Of a DNA stretch of 64,000 nt, positions 2,908 through 64,000 are shown piece after piece (positions within the stretch are counted from its first letter, which is position 1; the number at the start of each line of letters is the position of its first letter). The stretch spans positions 23,436,001-23,500,000 of the forward strand of contig OZ024765.1 in NCBI GenBank assembly GCA_964016885.1, written 5' to 3'. Source of the DNA: Eledone cirrhosa. Lineage: Eukaryota. Under the pieces are notes generated by a model. That model worked only from the letters and a program-made list of their open reading frames with translations, did not search any database and had not been told where the DNA came from. The translations under genes were made by a program, and so were the position numbers.

Positions 2908-3740
2908 ATATAGACGGAGGTATTTTAAATAATAAAGACAGTCATGATAACAATATATTTTATATCACATGTAACAGTGGAATCTGGTTAATTACTGGAT
3001 CGTTGTAGGGGTCACGTAATTATATTATTTACATACATTAATATAGACATTAAGTAAATCTTTGTCAACTTACCTCCTTCAGATATAATCAATGTGTTGT
3101 GTTGTTAGTTGTTACTAAACAACCAAAGAAATAATCTCTTTGTTATCAAATTAGATGTTTCAAAGATGTTATCAGCTTTATTTCACGACATTAACGTTGG
3201 TGTATCTTCTTCATCTTTAGTCATAAATTGATATCTTGTCAGAATGAAGTAGTGAGGCTGACTTTATGTCTTTAGCTACAGATTTGATATGAAATATATA
3301 TATATTAGGTTGATATGTGGTCTAAAATATATATATTGTCTATAAATGGCTGATAGCAGATGTTCTGGTGAAATAGTAGTTTTACTACTACAGATTGTAA
3401 TGGAACTCTTAGTAGACACAATTGTAAAGTAAGAATAGATATGACAGTGTAAGACTGATGTCGGGGAATTAAAATTGTATATATATATATAATTGTTACA
3501 CAAGATATAATTAGATTAGATTAATTAAAGTTATAATGAAGACAACAGGTACCCGGTGTCGTTGGGAATGTTTCAACTCTCGTACCGGTGTCGTACGTTA
3601 AAAGTCCATGATATAATTTAATACCTTCAGACACAGTTACAATAGTATTTAATTTATTGTAAATCAGAAAATATCAATTATATATCAATAAGAAAACCTC
3701 TATGTAGTCTCCCTAACTGCTAGAAATAGCAGTGATATTA
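2908..3740. repeat. Conserved ZNF-unit upstream block, copy 1
   Basis: Near-identical to about 22680-23480 and 62820-63650 (starts aaatagacggaggtattttaaataataaagacagtcatgataac). Confidence 0.9.
3074..3275 (-). other. Putative non-coding 5' UTR exon of a third ZNF gene whose coding exon lies left of the window
   Basis: Minus strand acceptor tcaaatctgtag|CTAAAG and donor GAAGGAG|gtaagt, conserved in all three copies. Confidence 0.55.
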
Positions 3741-3847
3741 TCCAATACAACTGCTATCTCTCTCTCTATATATATATTTATATATATACACACACATATG
3801 GACGTATGTATGCAAATGTGTATACAACTCTTATGTGTATGTGTATG

Positions 3848-9700: not shown

Positions 9701-11131
9701 TCAATGCGTTATGATTTCTCCTCTGCAGTTGTGAGCAGTTAGGCTACTTTTCCCAGAGAATGATATACCACAGATATCACAGTGATATGGCTTGTCTCCT
9801 GTATGTGTACGTTTGTGGCTAGTTAAGTTACTATTTTGATAGAATGATTTACCACAGATGTCACAGTGGTATGGCTTGTCTCCTGTATGTATACGTTTGT
9901 GGGTAGTTAAGTGACTACTTACAGAGAATGATTTACCACAGATATCACAGTGGTATGGCTTGTCTCCTGTATGTATACGTTTGTGAGTAGTTAAGGTACC
10001 ACTTACAGAGAATGATTTACCACAGATACCACAGTGATATGGCTTGTCTCCTGTATGGGTATGTTTGTGTCTAGTTAAGGTACTACTATCAGAGAATGAT
10101 TTACCACAGATATCACAATGATATGGCTTATCTCCTGTATGTATACGTTTGTGGCTAGTTAAGGTACCACTTACAGAGAATGATTTACCACAGATATCAC
10201 AGTGGTATGGCTTATCTCCTGTATGTATATGTTTGTGTCTAGTTAAGGTACTACTATCAGAGAATGATTTACCACAGATATCACAGTGGTATGGCTTATC
10301 TCCTGTATGGGTACGTTTGTGGCTAGTTAAGGCATTACTTTGAGAGAATGTTTTACCACAGATATCACAGTGATATGGCTTCTCGCCTGTATGTATAGGT
10401 TTGTGAGAAGTTAATTGACCTTTCTGCAAGAATGATTTACCACAGATGTCACAGTGATATGGCTTATCTCCTGTATGTATATGTTTGTGAGAAGTTAAGC
10501 TTCCTTTCAGAGAGAACGATTTACCACAGATATCACAGTGATATGGTTTCTCACCTGTATGTGTTTGTTTGTGTTTAGTTAAATTATCTCTTTCATAGAA
10601 TGATTTACCACAGATATCACAGTGATATGGCTTGTCTCCTGTATGGGTACGATTGTGGCTAGTTAAGGCATTACTTTCAGAGTATGATTTACCACAGTCA
10701 TATGGCTTGTCTCCTGTATGTATACGTTTGTGGCTAGTTAAGGTCCTATTTATAGAGAATGATTTGCCACAAATATTACAGTGATATGGTTTCTCTCCTG
10801 TATGTATACAATTGTGCTTAGTTAAGGCACTACATTGTGAGAATGATATCCCACAGAACTCACAATGATATGGCTCATCTCCTGTATGTATACGTATGTG
10901 TCTAGTTAAGTTACTATTTTGAGAGAATGATTTACCACAGATATCACAATATGGCTTATCTCCTGTATGTATAACTTTGTGAGTAGTTAAGGTACTACGT
11001 TTATTGAATGATTTACCACAGACATTGCAGTGATATGGCTTCTCTTCTCCGACCTTTGTCATCTCACCAGGAATACTAAACATTTTCGATTGTGTTTCGC
11101 ATTTAACCTTTTCACTCAATTTATTTTCCAT
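9701..11131 (-). CDS. Tandem C2H2 zinc-finger protein (16 finger repeats, 14 canonical), no KRAB or other effector domain seen
   Basis: 476-aa ORF with [10 protein letters not shown]...H repeats and TG(D/E)KPYH linkers. Splice acceptor ttcttatttcag ends at 11480, so the coding exon starts at about 11479. Candidate minus-strand AATAAA at 8794-8799. Confidence 0.93.
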
Positions 11132-11869
11132 AATAAATTTTTCTTCAACAGAATATACAAATGTTTTTCTTGTAATATTTTTTATATTATATTCCTAAAA
11201 AATATATCTTCTATATTTCCCTCAACTGTGATTTCAGTTAATATCTGAAGATAATACAAACTTCTTTTTCATCCAAGTTTAGTTAAAATACAAAATCATC
11301 TCATCGTGAAGAATATAAACTCAGTTTTGAGGAAATATTTCACAGTAATTTCACGACAGATTTATATAAACAGTGTTATATGAGTTCTATTTAAAAAGTT
11401 TTAGTCTTCAAATGATGATAAATAGAGGTGATGTATCCGAGATTGAAAATAATAATTTATCCCAATGTCATCTAGTATTCTGAAATAAGAAAGAAACAGT
11501 ATGAGATAATAGAGAATACTTAAAAAGCAGAGATAGATTTAACAGTGGACATTTTATATTTCTATATTGATAAACTGTAGATATAAACTTTCCTGTCCAG
11601 AGTAATTCTCTCCAATGTAAGCACTGGTATTCAAGCATGCTCTGTAAATTATATCCTTCTATCTCTAGAGAGGTCTGCTCTATGGCAGTTTAGTGAAAAA
11701 TTCATTCTGATAGGACTTTCTAACATAGCTATTATCTCCTCTCCTGGTGACATGTCTTCCATCTTTTTATTAGTAGGAGTCAATTGTTCCTCTATATCTT
11801 TTTCTTACTTCTTTTCTATCCTTCACTGGGAGAAATCGGCCGTGTTTAGACCAGGAGTTACGAGTCTAT

Positions 11870-17435: not shown

Positions 17436-17766
<331 letters not shown>

Positions 17767-17910
17767 TGACCAAAGAATAATATGGTTCGTTGATTACTCA
17801 ATGAATACAATTTTACAATAGATTAGAAGCACTCAACTGTGAGTTTCCCTGGAGTTTTTAATATTATTTAAAATATTAACAAATGAAAAATATTCTCATA
17901 ATCAAAATAT

Positions 17911-17979
17911 ATACTTTATTATATATATTTCAGAGGCACTGTGTTGTTTTTTTCAGTACGTCCTCATCAGACAAAATAT
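17911..17979 (-). ncRNA. Minimal type-I hammerhead ribozyme in a roughly 360-bp TA-flanked element (17767-18125)
   Basis: Minus: AUAUUUUGU-CUGAUGA-GGACGUACUG/loop/CAGUGCCUCU-GAAA-UAUAUA-UA^AUAAAGUAU. Stem I is 9 bp, stem II is 10 bp with one mismatch, stem III is palindromic. Confidence 0.8.
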
Positions 17980-18145
17980 ATGATTTGATATATGACATAC
18001 CGCTACGGTCTTGATCACACAATTCAAGTATTGTACCTTGGAGTAAACAAACCAACCTGCGTACTTTGTCAAGTGCTCCAATCTGCATACTGAGGTGTCG
18101 GTAAATAACCAACATATACTCAAAATATATATATATAAATATATA

Positions 18146-22232: not shown

Positions 22233-22254
22233 AGATGAAGTAAATTAAATCAAA

Positions 22255-23485
22255 ACAGATTTAGACTAAAACGAACAAAACTTCCCTGAAACAACAACAA
22301 GGTAGAGTTAAATATAAACTATATTTTATAATGTAAGGTAGTGAACCACATAATTAAATAGACGGAGGTATTTTAAATAATAAAGATATCTTTAATTTAC
22401 TTAAAGCAATAACAAGGTACAGCTAAATATAAACTATATTTTATAATGTAAGGTAGTGAACCACATAATTAAATAGACGGAGGTATTATAAATAATTGTT
22501 TCTACCTTTGGCACAAGGCCAGCAATTACTACCAGTGCATTACTGGTACTTTATTTTATCGACCCCGTAGGGATGAAAGGCAAAGTTAACCTCGGCGGGA
22601 TTTGAACTCAGAATGGAAAGGGACGTAACTCCTTGCGTCAAAGCATGACGTCCCACCCTCTACCGATAGTGCCAATCCATTTTAAATAATAAACAGTCAT
22701 GATAACAATATATTTTATATCACATGTAACAGTGGAATCTGGTTAATTACTGGATCGTTGTAGGGTTCAGATAATTATATTATTTACACACATTAATATA
22801 GACATTAAATAAATCTTTGTCAACTTACCTCCTTCACATATAATCAATGTGTTGTGTTGTTAGTTTTTACTAAACAACCAAAGAAATAATCTCTTTGTTA
22901 TCAAATTAGAAGTGTCAATGTTATCAGCTTTATTTCATGACATTAACGTTGGTGTATCTTCTTCATCTTTAGTCATAAATTGATATCTTGTCAGTATGAA
23001 GTAGTGAGGCTGACTTTATGTCTTTAGCTACAGATTTGATAGGAAATATATATATAATAGGTTGATATGTGGTCTAAAATATATATACTGTCTATAAATG
23101 ACTGATAGCAGATGTTCTGGTGAAATAGTAGTTTTACTACTACAGATTGTAATGGAACTCTTAGTAGACACAATTATAAAGTAAGAATAGATATGACAGT
23201 GTAAGACTGATGTCGGGGAATAATGAAGACAGCAGGTACTCGTTATCGTTGGGAATGTTTCAACTCTCGTACCGGTGTCATACATTAAAAGTCCCTGATT
23301 TAATTAAATACATTCAGACAGTTCCAATCGTATTTAATTGTTACACAAGATATAATTAGATTAAATATTATTATAATGAAGACAGCAGGTACGCGGTGTC
23401 GTTGGGAATGTTTCAACTCTCTTACCAGTGTCATACGTTAAAAGTCCCTGATATAATTTAATACCCCCAGACACAGTTCCAATGT
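22255..23485. repeat. Conserved ZNF-unit upstream block, copy 2 (SINE A inserted at about 22497-22678, minus)
   Basis: Homologous to 62608-63650, including an internal tandem duplication of about 120 bp. Confidence 0.9.
22829..23027 (-). other. Putative non-coding 5' UTR exon of ZNF-1
   Basis: Acceptor ttcctatcaaatctgtag and donor GAAGGAG|gtaagt. Confidence 0.55.
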
Positions 23486-24137: not shown

Positions 24138-24140
24138 AAC

Positions 24141-25015
24141 AAATTTAGAAGGGCCCTAGATAAACATAAACTTAATATTAAGAGAGTAGAAAGACCAGGT
24201 ACCTCCATAAAAACACTTATTAGCAAGACATACCCTTTTCAAAGACCTCCCTGTATAGATAAGAAATGTATAACCTGTAAACTAAGCCCCCATATTAACT
24301 GTAAAGCTAGAAATGTAGTATATAGCATAAGATGTACTGAAGGACAATGTAGAGATAAGAATATAGTGTACATAGGTGAGACAGCTCGTAGTATAGGGGA
24401 ACGGATAAATGAACACTGGTGAGAGCTTCAAGATAGTAAAGAATCATCAATACTCCACCAACATGCTAAAATAGAACATGAGAGCAAATTAGAGAACATA
24501 GAAATAAAAATAAAATCTACACACAGAAAAGACGCAATGTTTAGACAAACCACAGAGGCAATAAACATAAATGAACTCCAACCAAAATTAAATAGAAAAT
24601 ATGAATGGAACAGCAACATCACAACTTACAATTAAGGACAAAATGAAAACACACACACACATAGAACAAACAACCAACCAGTAACATGTAAATAAACAAA
24701 TATAAACACACAGACACCCGGATGTAACACATGCGCAAACTACGCACACAAGACACACAAAAACAAAATGGGTAGGACAGAAAAAAGGAGACGCACAAAA
24801 CAAAGTAAAGAATCCCCAGTCACTGAAGAGGTCACAGAATTTATGACGAAAGAACTTTGACAATATATGAACAACCGTCCGGTTATGGAACCAACCAACC
24901 AACCGGAAATTTATAAATTCTTAAATTTATAAATTTAATTTATAATAAATTGGAGTGAAAGCAAATGGTGCGTGTGTTTCTTATTGGCAACCTGACCCTC
25001 CCAAAGCATAACATT
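24141..25015 (+). mobile_element. Penelope-like element 3' end: C-terminal GIY-YIG endonuclease remnant (24141-24635) plus pseudo-LTR
   Basis: Manual translation: PCIDKKCITC..NCKARNVVYSIRC...VYIGETARSIGERINEH(W*)..SILHQH..EH..RQTTEAINI..PKLNRKYEW. Not in the ORF track (no ATG, one TGA). Confidence 0.9.
24819..24861 (+). ncRNA. Degenerate hammerhead ribozyme in the PLE pseudo-LTR
   Basis: GUCA-CUGAAGA-GGUCA cagaauuua UGAC-GAAA-GAAC-UU^UGAC. Confidence 0.6.
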
Positions 25016-25319
25016 GTAACTTTAATTAATCTAATTATATCTTGTGTAACAATTATATATATATATACACAAGTTTATTTCCCCGACATCAGTCTTACAC
25101 TGTCATATCTATTCTTACTTTACAATTGTGTCTACTAAGAGTTCCATTACAATCTGTAGTAGTAAGACTACTATATCACCAGAACATCTGTTATCAGTCA
25201 TATATGTATATACATGTATATATATATATACATATATATATGTATATACATATATATATGTATATACATATATATATGTATATACATATATATATGTATA
25301 TACATATATATATGTATAT

Positions 25320-34069: not shown

Positions 34070-35431
34070 TCAGTGATATGGTTTCTTACATCTATGTATA
34101 CGCCTGTGTTTAGATAAATGACTACTTTCAAAGAATGATTTACCACAGATATCGCAATGGTATGGCTTGTCTCCTGTATGTATACGTAAGTGTTTAGTTA
34201 AGGTACCACTTTGAGAGAATGATTTACCACAGATATCACAGTGAAAGTGCTTCTCTCCTGTATGTATACGTTTGTGTCTAGTTAAGCTACTATTATCAGA
34301 GAATGATTTACCACAGATATCACAATGATATGGCTTGTCTCCTGTATGGGTACGTGTGTGGGTAGTTAAGTGACTACTTACAGAGAATGATTTACCACAG
34401 ATATCACAGTGATATGGTTTGTCTCCTGTATGTGTACGTTTGTGACTAGTTAAGGCACTACTATCAGAGAATGATTTATCACAGATATCACAATGATATG
34501 GCTTGTCTCCTGTATGTATACGCTTGTGGGTAGTTAAGTGGCTACTTACAGAGAATGATTGACCACAGATATCACAGTGGTATGGCTTGTCTCCTGTATG
34601 GGTACGTTTGTGCGTAGTTAAGGCACTACCATCAGAGAATGATTTACCACAGATATCACAGTGATATGGCTTGTCTCCTGTATGGGTACGTTTGTGTCTA
34701 GTTAAGTGACTACTTACAGAGAATGATTTACCACAGATATCACAGTGGTATGGCTTCTCTCCTGTATGTATAAGTTTGTGTCTAGTTAAGTGACTACTTC
34801 GAGAGAATGATTTACCACAGATATCACAGTGATATGGCTGGTCTCCTGTATGTATACGTTTGTGAGTAGTTAAGGCACTACTTACAGAGAATGATTTACC
34901 ACAGATATCACAGTGGTATGGCTTGTCTCCTGTATGTATACGTTTGTGAGTAGTTAAGGCACTACTTTGAGAGAATGATTTACCACAGATATCACAGTGA
35001 TATGGCTTGTCTCCTGTATGGGTACGTTTGTGACTAGTTAAGGCACTACTATCAGAGAATGATTTACCACAGATATCACAGTGATATGGCTTCTCTCCTG
35101 TATGTATACGTTTGTGGCTAGTTAAGGACCTACTTACAGAGAATGATTTATCACAGATATCACAGTGATATGGCCTCTCTCCTGTGTGTATACGTTTGTG
35201 TCTAGTTAAGTTACTACCATCAGAGAATGATTTACCACAGATATCACAATATGGCTTGTCTCCTGTATGTATAACTTTGTGAGTAGTTAAGGTACTATGT
35301 TTATTGAATGATTTACCACAGATATCAGAGTGATATGTCTTCTCTTCTCTAACCTTTGTCATTTCACCAGGAATACTAAACACTTTAGATTGTGTTTCAC
35401 ATTTAATCTTCTCAGTCAACATATTTTCCAT
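34070..35431 (-). CDS. Tandem C2H2 zinc-finger protein (15 finger repeats, 14 canonical), paralog of 9701-11131
   Basis: 453-aa ORF. N-terminus [27 protein letters not shown] matches ZNF-1. Acceptor ttttcatttcag ends at 35749. Upstream homology with ZNF-1 extends to about 36025 / 11757. Confidence 0.93.
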
Positions 35432-36092
35432 GATTTACTTGTAATATTTCTTATATCATATTCCTAAAAATATTTCTTCCTCTATATTTCCCGCAACTGT
35501 GGTTTCAGTTAATATATGAAGATAATACAAACTTATATTTCATCCAAGTTTAGTTAAAATACAAAATAATCTCAGTGAAGAAAATAAACTCAGTTCTGAG
35601 GAAATATTTCACAGTAATTGAACTATATATTTATATAAACAGTGTTATATAAGTTCTGTTTAAAATGTTTTAGTCTTCAAATGATGATAAATATAGGTGG
35701 TGTATCCAAGATTGAAAATAATAATTTATCCCAATGTCATCTGGTATTCTGAAATGAAAAGGAAACAGTATGAGATAATACAGAATACTTTAGAAGCAGA
35801 GATAGATTTAACAGTGGAAATTTTATATTTCTATATTGGTAAACTGTAGATACAAACTTTCCTGTCCAGAGTAATTCTCTCCAATGTAAGCAGTGGTATT
35901 CAAGCATGCTCTGTAAATTATATCCTTCTATCTCTTGGGAGGTCTGCTCTATGACAGTTTAGTGAAAAATTCTTTCTGATAGCACTTTCTAACGTAGCTA
36001 ACATCTCCTCTCCTGGTGACATGTCACACCGGTTTAACATATACATATATAAATATATAAACACACACACATATATACATATATATATATAT

Positions 36093-49139: not shown

Positions 49140-49182
49140 GTAACCTACGCGTTTCATTCTTATTAGAAATCTTCAGGATTAC
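49140..49182 (-). ncRNA. Minimal type-I hammerhead ribozyme in a roughly 235-bp TA-flanked element (about 49015-49250)
   Basis: Minus: GUAAUC-CUGAAGA-UUUCU aaua AGAAU-GAAA-CGCG-UA^GGUUAC; palindromic ACGCGU stem III, GUA cleavage triplet. Confidence 0.8.
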
Positions 49183-57962: not shown

Positions 57963-58399
57963 AATAAAAGAAGCTAAATTTTAAACATTTGACTTTTTAT
58001 TTAACTTTATTTTACATTACTCCGGAGTAACCAAACCAACCTGCGCACTTCGTCGAGTGCTCCAGCCTGCATACTGAGGTGTTGGTATACAACCAACATG
58101 TACTCAAAATCTATATATATATATATATACATATATACATATGTATCGCTAGTTTCCATAACACATTTATTTTTTTTTACCCTCATTTTCTCTACCATGC
58201 TGCCTCACTATTTGTCTATTTTGCCATCAGATGCTACAGGCCATGACTTGGCTACCTACCTCACAATTTTCCTCCCTCCCACCACCATAGCCTATTCGAC
58301 CAATCAAACCTCATGATCCCCCCCCCCCCCCCACTACCAACCCCAACAAACCCTGCCATTTCTACTACTGTTCTTCTAGCCCTGAATTTTCCTACCGTT

Positions 58400-59616: not shown

Positions 59617-60027
59617 ACATCTACTCATAAATATTTATAAATAGACACATTATACAAAATAATTATTATGTACAACCACATCTATAAATGATTGAGGAAG
59701 AGCTGGTGAAACACTATAGCAATATGTGTGTTGCACCCCTTTTGGTTTTTACCGGCTACATAGCCTATCCGTATTCTTATATTACGAGTGTATATATCAG
59801 ATGTTGAGGGGTAATATCTTGTCTATTATGTATAATGTATGTATGTATATATACAATATATATATACACATATATATATGCATATATACATGAATACATC
59901 TATATATATATATACACATATATTTATGTATACATAATTATATATATATAAAGTATATATATATATATATTTTAGGTATGAATATAGTCTCATTAATATA
60001 TATATATAATATAATATAATTATTTAT

Positions 60028-60176
60028 ACTTTTGGCACAAGGCCAGCAATTATCCCAGTGCATTACTGGTACTTTATTTTATCGACCCCGTAAGGATGAA
60101 AGGCAAAGTTAACCTCAGCGGGATTTGAACTCAGAATGGCAAGGGCCGTAACTCTATGCGTCAAAGCATGGCGTCC
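60028..60176 (-). mobile_element. SINE family A, head truncated
   Basis: Reverse complement of the 5692-5880 body. Confidence 0.85.
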
Positions 60177-60243
60177 TGTTATTATATTATATATAATATA
60201 ATAACAGGAAGCTGGACTTGTGTAAATCCTTGAAAGGTTTATT

Positions 60244-60301
60244 ATACTATGATCATTTCAATGACCGGGTTCCGTATGAATCCGGTGATATCATCAGGTA
60301 T
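60244..60301 (-). ncRNA. Type-I hammerhead ribozyme (left arm, intact core)
   Basis: Minus: AUAC-CUGAUGA-UAUCACCGGAUUC auacg GAACCCGGUCAUU-GAAA-UGAUCA-UA^GUAU; palindromic AUGAUCAU stem III. Confidence 0.8.
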
Positions 60302-61347
60302 TCGAAATAAAATAAATGAATGTAACAGATAAAATCCATGGGGCTGAAAATCATAGACCCGAGGACGACCGACCATCTAGCATCTTCCACTTTAGTTGGT
60401 CACCCTCGAGTGCTGGGCTATTCGGTCTACTTAAGGCTATCTGGTGAGGGGGCGAAAGCTTATAATGTGGTAACATCCCGGTCAAAGAGAAAAAAAAGAC
60501 AGAAAGAAAGAAGAAAAGTCAGCGTTAATGTCATGCTACAATCAGGCTAGGAATTGCCGCGAAAAATGTTATTCTAAAGAACCTATATCTTAACAGAGGT
60601 ATACATAGTGGGCATCTACATGGTATAATGTGTGAACAGAAAACTGGAATGTTAAATTTTTGTTTAGATTCATAGGATGAAATTAGAAAAATTAAATTAA
60701 AGATTAAAATTATAAAATTAAAAATTAAACAGTTTAAAAAAGCTGTTTGACTGCTAAACAAGGACTTAATCTTTACTCTATATACCACCCTGAAAACTTA
60801 TCGAGGATCTCTATAATACACTTAAAATTTTTTCATAAAAGACTCTCTGTAAATTCTTTAACTAAATCTCGCAACCCAAACCATACATTTTTTTTAAAAC
60901 TGTTTAATTTTTAATTTTCAAATTTTTTTAAATTTTTAAATTTTATAATTTAAATCTTTAATTTAATTTTTCTAATTTCATCCTATAAATCTAAACAAAA
61001 ATTTAACGTTCCAGTTTTCTGTTCACACATTATACCATGCAGATGCCCACTATATATACCTCTGTTATAATATAGGTTCTTTAGAATAACATTTTTCGCG
61101 GCAATTCCTAGCCTGATTGTAGCATGACATTTCTTCTTTCTTTCTGACTATTTTTTCTCTTTGACCGGGATGTTAGTAGCACATTATAAGCTTTCGCCCC
61201 CTCACCAGATAGCCTTAAGTAGACCGAATAGCCCAGCACTTGAGGGCGACCAACTAAAGTGGCAAATGTTAGATGGTCGGTCGTCCTCGGGTCTATGATT
61301 TTCAGCCCCATGGATTTTACCTGTTACATTCATTTATTATATTTCGA

Positions 61348-61405
61348 ATACTTGATGATATCACCGGATTCGTACGGAACCCGGTCATTGAAATGATCAT
61401 AGTAT
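61348..61405 (+). ncRNA. Hammerhead ribozyme (right arm, C3-to-U core change)
   Basis: AUAC-UUGAUGA-...-GAAA-UGAUCA-UA^GUAU. Confidence 0.65.
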
Positions 61406-61697
61406 AATAAAACTTTCAAGGATTTACACAAGTCCAGCCTCCTGTTATTTTATTATATTTAACTCCGTACCCGCACACAAACGAAGACGGTTGAGCTGCT
61501 TTATGTTGAGTACTCTCCATATTATTACATCAAGATTGACCATACGGAATGACCAGCTCTATCCAGTGGTGAACCTTCAAACCTAAATAAATATATATAT
61601 ATATATATATAACGAAATAGTCCAGAAATAGCCGTCGAAACGGCTTGAGCTCTGCCGTTGGGGTCATACATTTTCCTATATATATATATATAGGAAA

Positions 61698-62537
61698 CCG
61701 TTTATTTCCGTATCCCCACCACCACCATGTGTAAATAAATAAACTTTGAAATCACCACGTTGATGCAAAACTTGGTTTTTCACTTTGGGATAATACAGGT
61801 ATTTGCAACTTGAAAAATATGAATTCTACATTATACCCCAGCGTGGAATTAATCATCGCGATATTTCCATCACTACCGCTACTACAGCCCATGCCATTAA
61901 TTGGTTGAAATAACATGGGCTTAATCCTGTATGTTATTAAAAGGTTCCCGAGTAGCACAGTAAAATAAAGCCTTTACGAACGGAACTGTGCAATGAAAGT
62001 ATTTTTAATAAGTGTATCTCATCGTAAACGTATCTCTTAGAAATTCATAAATGGCTGTGTAAACCCTTATACTTTAAAACAAAATTACAAACCAATTATG
62101 TGGTCATTGAAGTTGCAAAAATAGCAGGCAAATCTTATACACTCTGCCACATCCTGTGTTCGTGGCAGCTGAGTATCAACCATCCATAAATCATTTTTAC
62201 CCGCTAAGAATCTCAATGGGGGAAAATTTTCTTCAATTTCTGCCAGTATTACAAAACAATGTTATCTTGTAGTTACCCGCGTTAAATTGTTTTTTTTAAA
62301 GAAATTCGGTAGTGTCGACCCCATGAACTTCATTTGTTTTCTAATTTGATAACTATGACTATGAAATAAAACGCGTGGTGATATGGAAACAAATCGATTA
62401 CGCTAAACGTAAATAAACATAAATAAGTTGCAAATTCGTGTATTATCCCAAAGTGAAAATCCAAGTTTTGCATCAACGTGGTGATTTCAAAGTTTATTTA
62501 TTTACACATGGTGGTGGTGGGGATACGGAAATAAACG
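61698..62537. mobile_element. 840-bp element with near-perfect inverted termini of about 77 bp (MITE/ITR element, family unknown)
   Basis: cgtttatttccgtatccccaccaccaccatgtg..gatgcaaaacttgg (61698-61775) versus its reverse complement at 62461-62537. Confidence 0.8.
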
Positions 62538-62607
62538 AAGGTTTGACGAATGACGTCACATTCTTCTACTTTCACATCTGACAGCCAATTCCGTTGTAGT
62601 GCCCAAA

Positions 62608-63650
62608 ATAGATTTAGACTAAAACGAACAAAACTTCCCTGAAACAACAAGGTACAGCTAAATATAAACTATATTTTATAATGTAAGGTAGTGAACCACA
62701 TAATTAAATAGACGGAGGTAATTTAGATAATAAATATATCATCAATTTACTTAAAGCAATAACACGGTACAGCTAAATATAAACTATATTTTATAATGTA
62801 AGGTAGTGAACAAGATAATTAAATAGACGGAGGTAATTTAAAAAATAAAGACAGTCATGATAACAATATATTTTATATAACATGTAACAGTGGAATCTGG
62901 TTAATTACTGTATCGTTGTAGGGTTCACATAATTATATTATTTACACACATTAATATAGACATTAAGTAAATCTTTGTCAACTTACCTCCTTCAGATATA
63001 ATCAATGTGTTGTGTTGTTAGTTGTTACTAAACAACCAAAGAAATAATCTCTTTGTTATCAAATTAGAAGTTTCAAAGATGTTATCAGCTTTATTTCACG
63101 ACATTAACCTTCTTCATCTTTAGTCATAAATTGATATCTTGTCAGAATGAAGTAGTGAGGCTGACTTTATGTCTATAGCTACAGATTTGATAGGAAATAT
63201 ATATATATTAGGTTGATATGTGGTTTAAAATATATATATTGTCTATAAATGACTGATAGCAGATGTTCTGGTGAAATAGTAGTTTTACTACTACAGATTG
63301 TAATGGAACTCTTAGTAGACACAATTGTAAAGTAAGAATGGATATGACAGTGTAAGACTGATGTCGAGGAAATAAACTTGTGTATATATATATATATATA
63401 ATTGTTACACAAGATATAATTAGATTAATTAAAGTTATAATGAAGACATCAGGTACTTGGTGTCGTTGGAAATGATTTAACTCCCTTACCGGTGTCATTA
63501 GTTAAAAGTCCCTGATATAATTTAATACATTCAGACAGTTCCAATCGTATTTAATCGATAGTAAATCAAAAGGTATCACTTAGTAAAATATCAATTATAT
63601 ATCTACGTAGTGTCTCTGACTTCTAGAAATAGCAGTGAAATTATCCATTA
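62608..63650. repeat. Conserved ZNF-unit upstream block, copy 3
   Basis: Homologous to 22255-23485 and 2908-3740. Confidence 0.9.
62987..63178 (-). other. Putative non-coding 5' UTR exon of ZNF-2
   Basis: Acceptor ttcctatcaaatctgtag and donor GAAGGAG|gtaagt. Confidence 0.55.
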
Positions 63651-64000
63651 CAGACTTTTCTTTATTTAAACCATTACGTTTAGTAGATGTTTGTGTTGAG
63701 AATGTGTGTATTTGTGTATTGTATCACGGAAGTCACCATTGTAGATGTTAAAAGCAATGTTGTGGAAAATAGCATCGTACGACTTTGTAATTGTTTATAT
63801 ATAATTTATTTACAGATTACAAAGGTTAGAAGAATGTCTCTTGAAATGATAGTTAATGTTATCAATAAAAAGGTTATAAAGATTTAAAGACGTACGGTCA
63901 ACTGGCTGAGGCGTTAGCCAGACCTGTAGTGATATCTGTTGCTACATATTGTCTATGCTTGAGGAACGAAAGCAAGAGATGTTTACCTTCACTGTGTCGA

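Follow-up and report, generated by a model that had tools for sequence, protein, structure and literature searches.

Architecture of the foldback

The window, the whole 64,000-nucleotide stretch of Eledone cirrhosa contig OZ024765.1 that was analysed, contains near its right end an inverted repeat made of a left arm at 60187-60741 on the minus strand, a spacer of 146 bp at 60742-60887 on the plus strand, and a right arm at 60888-61462 on the plus strand. [quoted passage not shown] The spacer is the single-copy 5′ part of the longer right copy and is repeated elsewhere in the genome. Local alignment of 60187-60740 with 61462-60915 gives an arm identity of 92.1% (516 of 560 columns), with 26 substitutions in 542 paired columns and 18 gap columns in gaps of 3, 12, 1, and 2 nt. 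The match resumes inward beyond a short duplication in the right arm, and reaches 60741/60888. A foldback with arms of about 545 bp and a spacer of about 150 bp had been given in the preliminary description and is confirmed by these values. Its limits of 60200-61449 are probably too narrow, the element most likely reaching 61590 on the right.

Among the nine inverted repeats with arms less than 4 kb apart in a dust-filtered self-comparison of the window, the foldback is the longest. No further copy of the arms lies in the window, a self-comparison giving the inverted match only for the foldback. Non-LTR retrozymes are recognised by hammerhead-bearing units of 150-450 bp in head-to-tail tandem, and such units were likewise absent from the self-comparison. 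Each arm has a GC-rich hairpin about 60 nt upstream of its hammerhead. The right copy, at 61238-61292 on the plus strand, has a folding energy of -28.6 kcal/mol and a z of -5.7 (0 of 200 shuffles), and the left copy, at 60357-60411 on the minus strand, has a z of -3.6.

A second inverted repeat is located just downstream at 61699-61811 and 62425-62537. It is MITE-like, with 113-bp arms that are 97% alike and about 610 bp between them.

Hammerhead motifs

A scan of 60000-61700 for YUGANGA yields exactly two cores, CUGAUGA at 60297 on the minus strand and UUGAUGA at 61352 on the plus strand. The former is the intact core (60297-60291) of a type I hammerhead at 60238-60311 (-), with predicted cleavage after 60248. 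The latter (61352-61358) belongs to a type I hammerhead at 61338-61411 (+), whose C3U core is predicted to be inactive and whose cleavage position would be after 61401. Both motifs contain a 4-bp helix I, AUAC/GUAU, with a bulged distal extension, a GAA, the cleavage triplet AUA, a helix II of 31 nt opening with U.U, and a palindromic helix III, AUGAUCAU. One outward-pointing hammerhead per arm is thus present, as had been reported earlier, but the arms do not end in them, the motifs being about 50 bp inside the arm ends.

No Rfam ribozyme reaches the gathering threshold in the window, and the 13 matches at E ≤ 10 in 60000-61800 include none. The motifs are therefore called hammerheads on the basis of a descriptor made for this analysis and of the published features of hammerheads in Penelope-like elements (PLEs). 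By this descriptor, the foldback has the sense-strand type I hammerhead near the pLTR 3′ end, with palindromic helix III, that is typical of PLEs. Dinucleotide shuffles of one arm matched the descriptor with a perfect core in 0 of 5000 cases, and with at most one core mismatch in 12 of 5000. A 20-nt hammerhead pattern was found at six metagenome loci, all of them chance matches of only 20-22 nt, and at no viral locus. Among the 40 variants listed out of 312 from public reads, none lies in 60233-60300, in line with a conserved ribozyme, and several lie just upstream at 60310-60326.

The predicted fold of the left hammerhead has an energy of -4.2 kcal/mol, compared to -15.1 kcal/mol for its own misfold and -133.6 kcal/mol for the duplex. 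Because the hammerhead folds are predicted to lie about 11-14 kcal/mol above the free fold, and because the right core is C3U, self-cleavage at these sites is predicted to be weak or absent.

Each arm also carries a hammerhead-like string of opposite polarity, at 60441(+) and 61208(-), with the core CUGGUGA. These strings comprise a G-C closed 4-nt loop, a GAA, a palindromic AGCU, a 3-bp helix I, and a 1-bp helix II, and they coincide with a local bump in read depth. They are probably not ribozymes, given the A6G core, the 1-bp helix II, and matches in 12 of 5000 shuffles to a descriptor that was itself drawn post hoc. None of the 40 listed variants out of 312 has A at the A6G position.

Ends of the element and probable target site

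The left flank contains a SINE copy at 60016-60176 (+), presumably an octopus SINE, the 3′ end of which is cut about 25 nt short. Six other SINE copies in the window extend beyond its cut point, and its last three nucleotides, TCC, are common to the element end. The cut SINE abuts a perfect 36-nt palindrome at 60174-60209, which is a 15-nt inverted duplication of the outer end of the left arm. Among 12 candidate end pairs no target-site duplication (TSD) was found, apart from an 8-10-nt repeat made by the palindrome on the left and short AT-rich matches. The fixed-length TSD of a MITE is thus not seen, in a test that is weakened by the remodelled left junction.

The SINE truncation, the 3-nt microhomology, and the perfect palindrome are features that would be left by a DNA-level event, in which insertion of a single Penelope-type end was followed by an inverted duplication (fold-back repair or template switch) that produced the left arm and also cut the SINE. 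This course of events is nevertheless unlikely. The left arm holds element sequence only, and stops just before the tail as in published PLE inverted copies. A DNA duplication would have no reason to respect the limits of arm and tail, and the extent of the left arm therefore counts against it.

On the right side, the element most likely runs on to a (TA)n microsatellite at 61591-61611, the likely insertion target, which would give a one-sided extension of 128 bp at 61463-61590 (+), as judged from paralogues in the window. The last 111 bp of this tail recur with 89% identity at 23682-23572, which is most likely a separate short copy of the tail end. The tail length of 128 bp is derived from three elements in one window, and published tails have 30-40 bp. 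A right extension that ends at (TA)n, like that of two other hammerhead elements in the window, and that has a motif in common with them at a similar distance, would support a Penelope-like insertion.

The region 23930-23560(-) was considered as a paralogous empty site, which would have given a 38-bp tail and a 64-bp target deletion. It was rejected on SINE subfamily: the SINE beside the foldback is 95.7% like the 5880(-) subfamily, and 87% like the 23904(-) copy, which has different diagnostic bases. Shuffled sequences fold as well as the 38-bp piece of the rejected reading.

The window also has very long AT-rich microsatellite blocks, the flanks of which are duplicated, at 51829-54429/54404-56774 and at 48925-49700/50917-51694. 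They possibly reflect tandem duplication or assembly redundancy.

Other hammerhead-bearing ends and a shared 10-nt motif

Three more hammerhead-bearing ends are present in the window, at 17970(-), 49176(-), and 57913(+). They have PLE-type type I motifs with perfect cores and a palindromic helix III (AUAUAUAU, ACGCGU). They are unrelated in sequence to the foldback, and all three end in (TA)n. At 17765-18135, two unrelated element ends lie head to head between two (TA)n runs. The hammerhead-bearing end points left, a 107-bp end that is 89% like 58024-58130 points right, and both contain the 10-nt motif described below.

The tail of the right arm has the motif GTYGAGTRCT at 61505-61514 (+) in common with two unrelated hammerhead elements of the window. 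In these three elements, 83, 95, and 104 nt separate it from the cleavage site upstream and 50-76 nt from the (TA)n downstream, and it is missing from the fourth hammerhead element, at 49176. A slightly wider pattern, drawn from the same sites, occurs five times in the window against 0.79 expected. All five sites are 47-76 nt before (TA)n; with a 50-85-nt window, 3.4% of positions would be so placed. In 300 shuffled trios, the 8 of 10 identical columns seen here were never attained, the trio having been chosen from four possible ones.

It is conceivable, though rather doubtful, that a single Penelope protein with (TA)n as its target mobilises many families in trans and recognises GTYGAGTRCT as its binding or start signal. 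The insertion would then record both start sites, 128 nt apart, and the 36-nt palindrome would be the top strand copying the first cDNA for 15 nt before switching to RNA. If so, the start sites are separated by three to four times the known tail length. In the literature searched, no paper on the octopus family of the foldback or on the shared motif was found, and the supplements of the bioRxiv preprint on retrozymes cited below may contain related consensus sequences. A genome-wide check is warranted only for the greater tail length and for the 10-nt motif.

Coding capacity

The foldback copy contains no ORF, and no RT or GIY-YIG frame linked to the family was found through the spacer and tail peptides. 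The spacer can be read as CLTAKQGLNL, as noted previously, but the suggested likeness to a PLE endonuclease end is not borne out, no relative having been found in protein, word, or Pfam searches. The 58-residue spacer frame gave one unrelated TPR protein (E 9e-4) among 1.84 billion representatives, no match in the word search, and no Pfam family. A 64-codon open frame through the tail gave no match in the protein search. Three short strings of the element were not found in the Craig 2021 supplement, in which the two Octopus rows listed, of four, are Naiad families.

A GIY-YIG remnant occurs at 24138-24640(+), matching PF01541 at E 3.6e-4, under the curated cut-off, and has no DNA in common with the foldback. 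It is a broken frame with an upstream cysteine cluster, and represents a Penelope-like remnant. After it, the sequence at 25012-25257 is inverted relative to part of a repeated promoter-like block.

Read-depth profile of the family

Public reads of four runs, out of 15 listed, from three studies (X1, X13, X5, and X4) were compared at 80% likeness over the left flank, left arm, and spacer (60030-60895), read depth being a proxy and not a copy number. The depth peaks in the hammerhead bin 60233-60261, at 752,257 in X1, and in the same run is about 5,800 on the inner arm (60552-60667) and about 3,800 on the spacer. The ratio of hammerhead to inner-arm depth is 130 in X1, 32 in X13, 18 in X5, and 3.7 in X4, which is the same direction in all four runs. 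This gradient agrees with a family of abundant short 3′ stubs and rare long copies, as for 5′-truncated retrocopies. The strong 5′ truncation across copies that is typical of PLEs is accordingly seen, with depth as a proxy, in four of four runs. X4, a small run of unrecorded kind, has a near-flat arm profile, a 20-fold lower spacer, and single deep contigs on the arm.

A short spacer between long inverted arms is also what a non-autonomous foldback DNA transposon of MITE or FB type would show, with TIRs of about 550 bp and a captured hammerhead, moving as a fixed unit. The inner-arm to spacer depth ratios of 1.5 in X1 and 1.6 in X5 would agree with this; they are 0.24 in X13 and 20 in X4. Such a transposon is improbable here, as its copies should be uniform along the arms and best conserved at the termini, and the arm depth is not flat, the hammerhead peak being 4- to 130-fold over the inner arm and the depth varying up to 130-fold along one arm. 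The lack of a TSD among the 12 end pairs and the unequal ends, with a one-sided extension to (TA)n, also stand against it. The X1 and X5 ratios near 2:1 may leave room for a minority subfamily with a fixed foldback.

The bin at the inner junction has a depth of 853 compared to 4268 in the next bin in X1, and of 134 compared to 325 in X13 (first mate +). A low value is expected if other copies lack the 60741/60742 junction, and may equally be a clipping effect, since the bin adjoins a skipped AT-rich stretch at 60688-60729.

Both arms share four states (60396, 60397, 60614, and 60644) that differ from 87-100% of the X1 depth, and the arms thus have one source. These non-majority states would equally follow from the DNA-level inverted duplication of a single Penelope-type end, in favour of which they count, or from gene conversion. 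Seven left-arm states where the right arm has the majority base are of mixed type and lack A-to-G polarity.

Probable origin of the foldback

The foldback is best explained, with a probability of roughly 0.78, as one old, 5′-truncated insertion of an endonuclease-dependent Penelope-like retroelement, in which the ribozyme-bearing 3′ end is present as two copies placed head to head, and which is now likely inert. An inverted, 5′-truncated copy adjacent at the 5′ end, as in PLEs, is present. The depth gradient, the absence of a TSD, and the PLE-type hammerhead likewise support the initial assignment of the foldback to a PLE with an inverted pseudo-LTR, and not to a MITE. By its layout, the element likely behaves like an EN+ PLE insertion, and its parent would be an ORF-bearing PLE or a non-coding derivative.

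In the proposed mechanism, a PLE protein would cut both strands of an AT-rich site at or near (TA)n. The first cDNA would start at the outer site, at the TA repeat, and copy the tail, the arm, and the spacer, about 850 nt in all. A second cDNA, made from the same kind of RNA, would start about 128 nt further in and run the other way for about 550 nt. A short AT-rich palindrome at 60741/60742 would be where the truncated 5′ ends of both cDNAs met head to head. Remodelling of the left junction, at that time or later, would have left the SINE without its last 25 nt or so and duplicated 15 nt of the arm end as a fold-back, so that no TSD would survive.

Possible host gene and predicted duplex RNA

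The window contains tandem C2H2 zinc-finger (ZNF) exons at 9701-11194(-) and 34070-35434(-). A candidate splice donor of the host zinc-finger gene, AG|GTAAGT, is located at 62981-62988 on the minus strand, and is conserved in three paralogous blocks that account for three of its four minus-strand matches in the window. The blocks, of about 850 bp, are found at 2910-3749, 22251-23483, and 62604-63652; each carries the same minus-strand donor, and they point to periodic gene duplication. The donor at 62988(-) would plausibly place the foldback in an intron of about 27 kb. The ZNF intron predicted in the preliminary description is strengthened by this conserved donor and weakened by the acceptor, which reads CAT before the second ZNF exon (34070-35434) and CAG in the first copy.

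The read-through RNA is predicted to form a duplex of about 550 bp, with a longest unbroken helix of about 70 bp and an energy of -870 to -895 kcal/mol, so that the long dsRNA that had been anticipated is borne out as a prediction. A conserved donor that would make the locus intronic and a predicted duplex of this size count in favour of a reading in which the host uses the foldback as an intronic ADAR or Dicer substrate, in alternation with cleavage of the zinc-finger pre-mRNA by the ribozyme. Such a function is highly improbable. The energies are lopsided, at about -4 kcal/mol for the hammerhead fold, -15 for the misfold, and -134 for the duplex, and each strand has only one sense hammerhead, which together speak against the proposed competition between dsRNA and ribozyme. 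In a transcript of the ZNF (minus) strand, the left hammerhead would be the only one in sense orientation, and its complement would be made before it. As the two motifs are on opposite strands, dimerisation in cis is impossible. On these energies, a motif that depends on a partner on the same strand would simply be sequestered, not switched, and cleavage is predicted to be off whether the second arm is present or absent. PLE-type motifs are reported to have no detectable cleavage as monomers (PMC4209133). In addition, the right core is decayed, the arms have drifted by 26 substitutions and indels with no A-to-G polarity, and the acceptor of this ZNF copy departs from that of its paralogue.

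Germline-fixed ADAR editing was rejected on the basis of the 26 arm differences, which lack A-to-G polarity. Editing of a long duplex is expected of ADAR in general. If the foldback is intronic, its duplex of about 550 bp would be a convenient, not a special, substrate for cephalopod ADAR. Incidental editing is likely if the intron is transcribed, and this would not be a switch.

Comparison with known systems

EN+ PLE insertions: An inverted 5′-truncated copy, a one-sided tail, and a TSD that is sometimes absent are the described layout of EN+ PLEs (PMC8557442; PMC3846280). Examples in Arkhipova et al. 2013 (PMC3846280) have inverted pLTRs and palindromes at the junctions and lack a TSD, and Neptune, Hydra, and Naiad PLEs are reported to target (TA)n (PMC8557442). 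The foldback shares the head-to-head inverted copy of the 3′ end, the 5′ truncation, the junction palindrome, and the optional TSD, and it probably also has the one-sided extension and the (TA)n-associated end. In contrast, its arms of about 550 bp exceed the 180-220 bp of the rotifer examples, its inferred tail of about 128 bp differs from the 30-40 bp published for PLEs, and no ORF is linked to it here.

PLE hammerheads: Paired min-HHRs on opposite strands, about 100-700 bp apart, were described by Cervera and De la Pena 2014, with undetectable monomer cleavage and low dimer cleavage of the PLE minimal hammerhead (PMC4209133). The long helix II, the 4-bp helix I, the small palindromic helix III, and the opposite-strand pairs of metazoan PLE type I hammerheads are all found in the foldback. 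However, its helix II opens with U.U in place of the conserved G10.1-C11.1 pair, and its cores are 1055 bp apart, beyond the reported spacing of PLE pairs (PMC4209133).

Retrozymes: Metazoan non-LTR retrozymes are also non-coding and abundant, and also have a type I hammerhead (PMC7229834; bioRxiv 10.64898/2026.07.22.740005). A helix II opened by U.U is known from axolotl retrozymes (Cervera and de la Pena 2020, PMC7229834), among which HHR_Amex2 has U.U at the helix II base and performs better in dimeric form. In retrozymes, units of 170-400 nt are repeated head to tail in tandem, whereas the foldback is an inverted pair only.

Poseidon PAc: In vitro, Poseidon PAc from Anolis cuts and extends both strands and uses two RT start sites that bound the tail (PMC11167929). 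AT-rich cleavage of two strands, together with two RT start sites downstream of the hammerhead, would explain the two different outer ends of the foldback. The PAc start sites are a few tens of nucleotides apart within the ORF start, whereas the foldback ends are about 128 nt apart, with no evident ORF start.

Octopus repeats: The repeat annotation of Octopus vulgaris lists 31 recently active Penelope-like families, and ribozymes are not mentioned in its main text. The foldback is most likely ordinary, with a layout known from many animals, and it is debris of a known class. Such ends are common here, with four different hammerhead-bearing ends in the 64-kb window. Its value is modest, as a natural record of a Penelope insertion, a process that is still incompletely understood. 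Concrete positions for the existing in vitro assay are provided by the two unequal ends and by the 10-nt motif.
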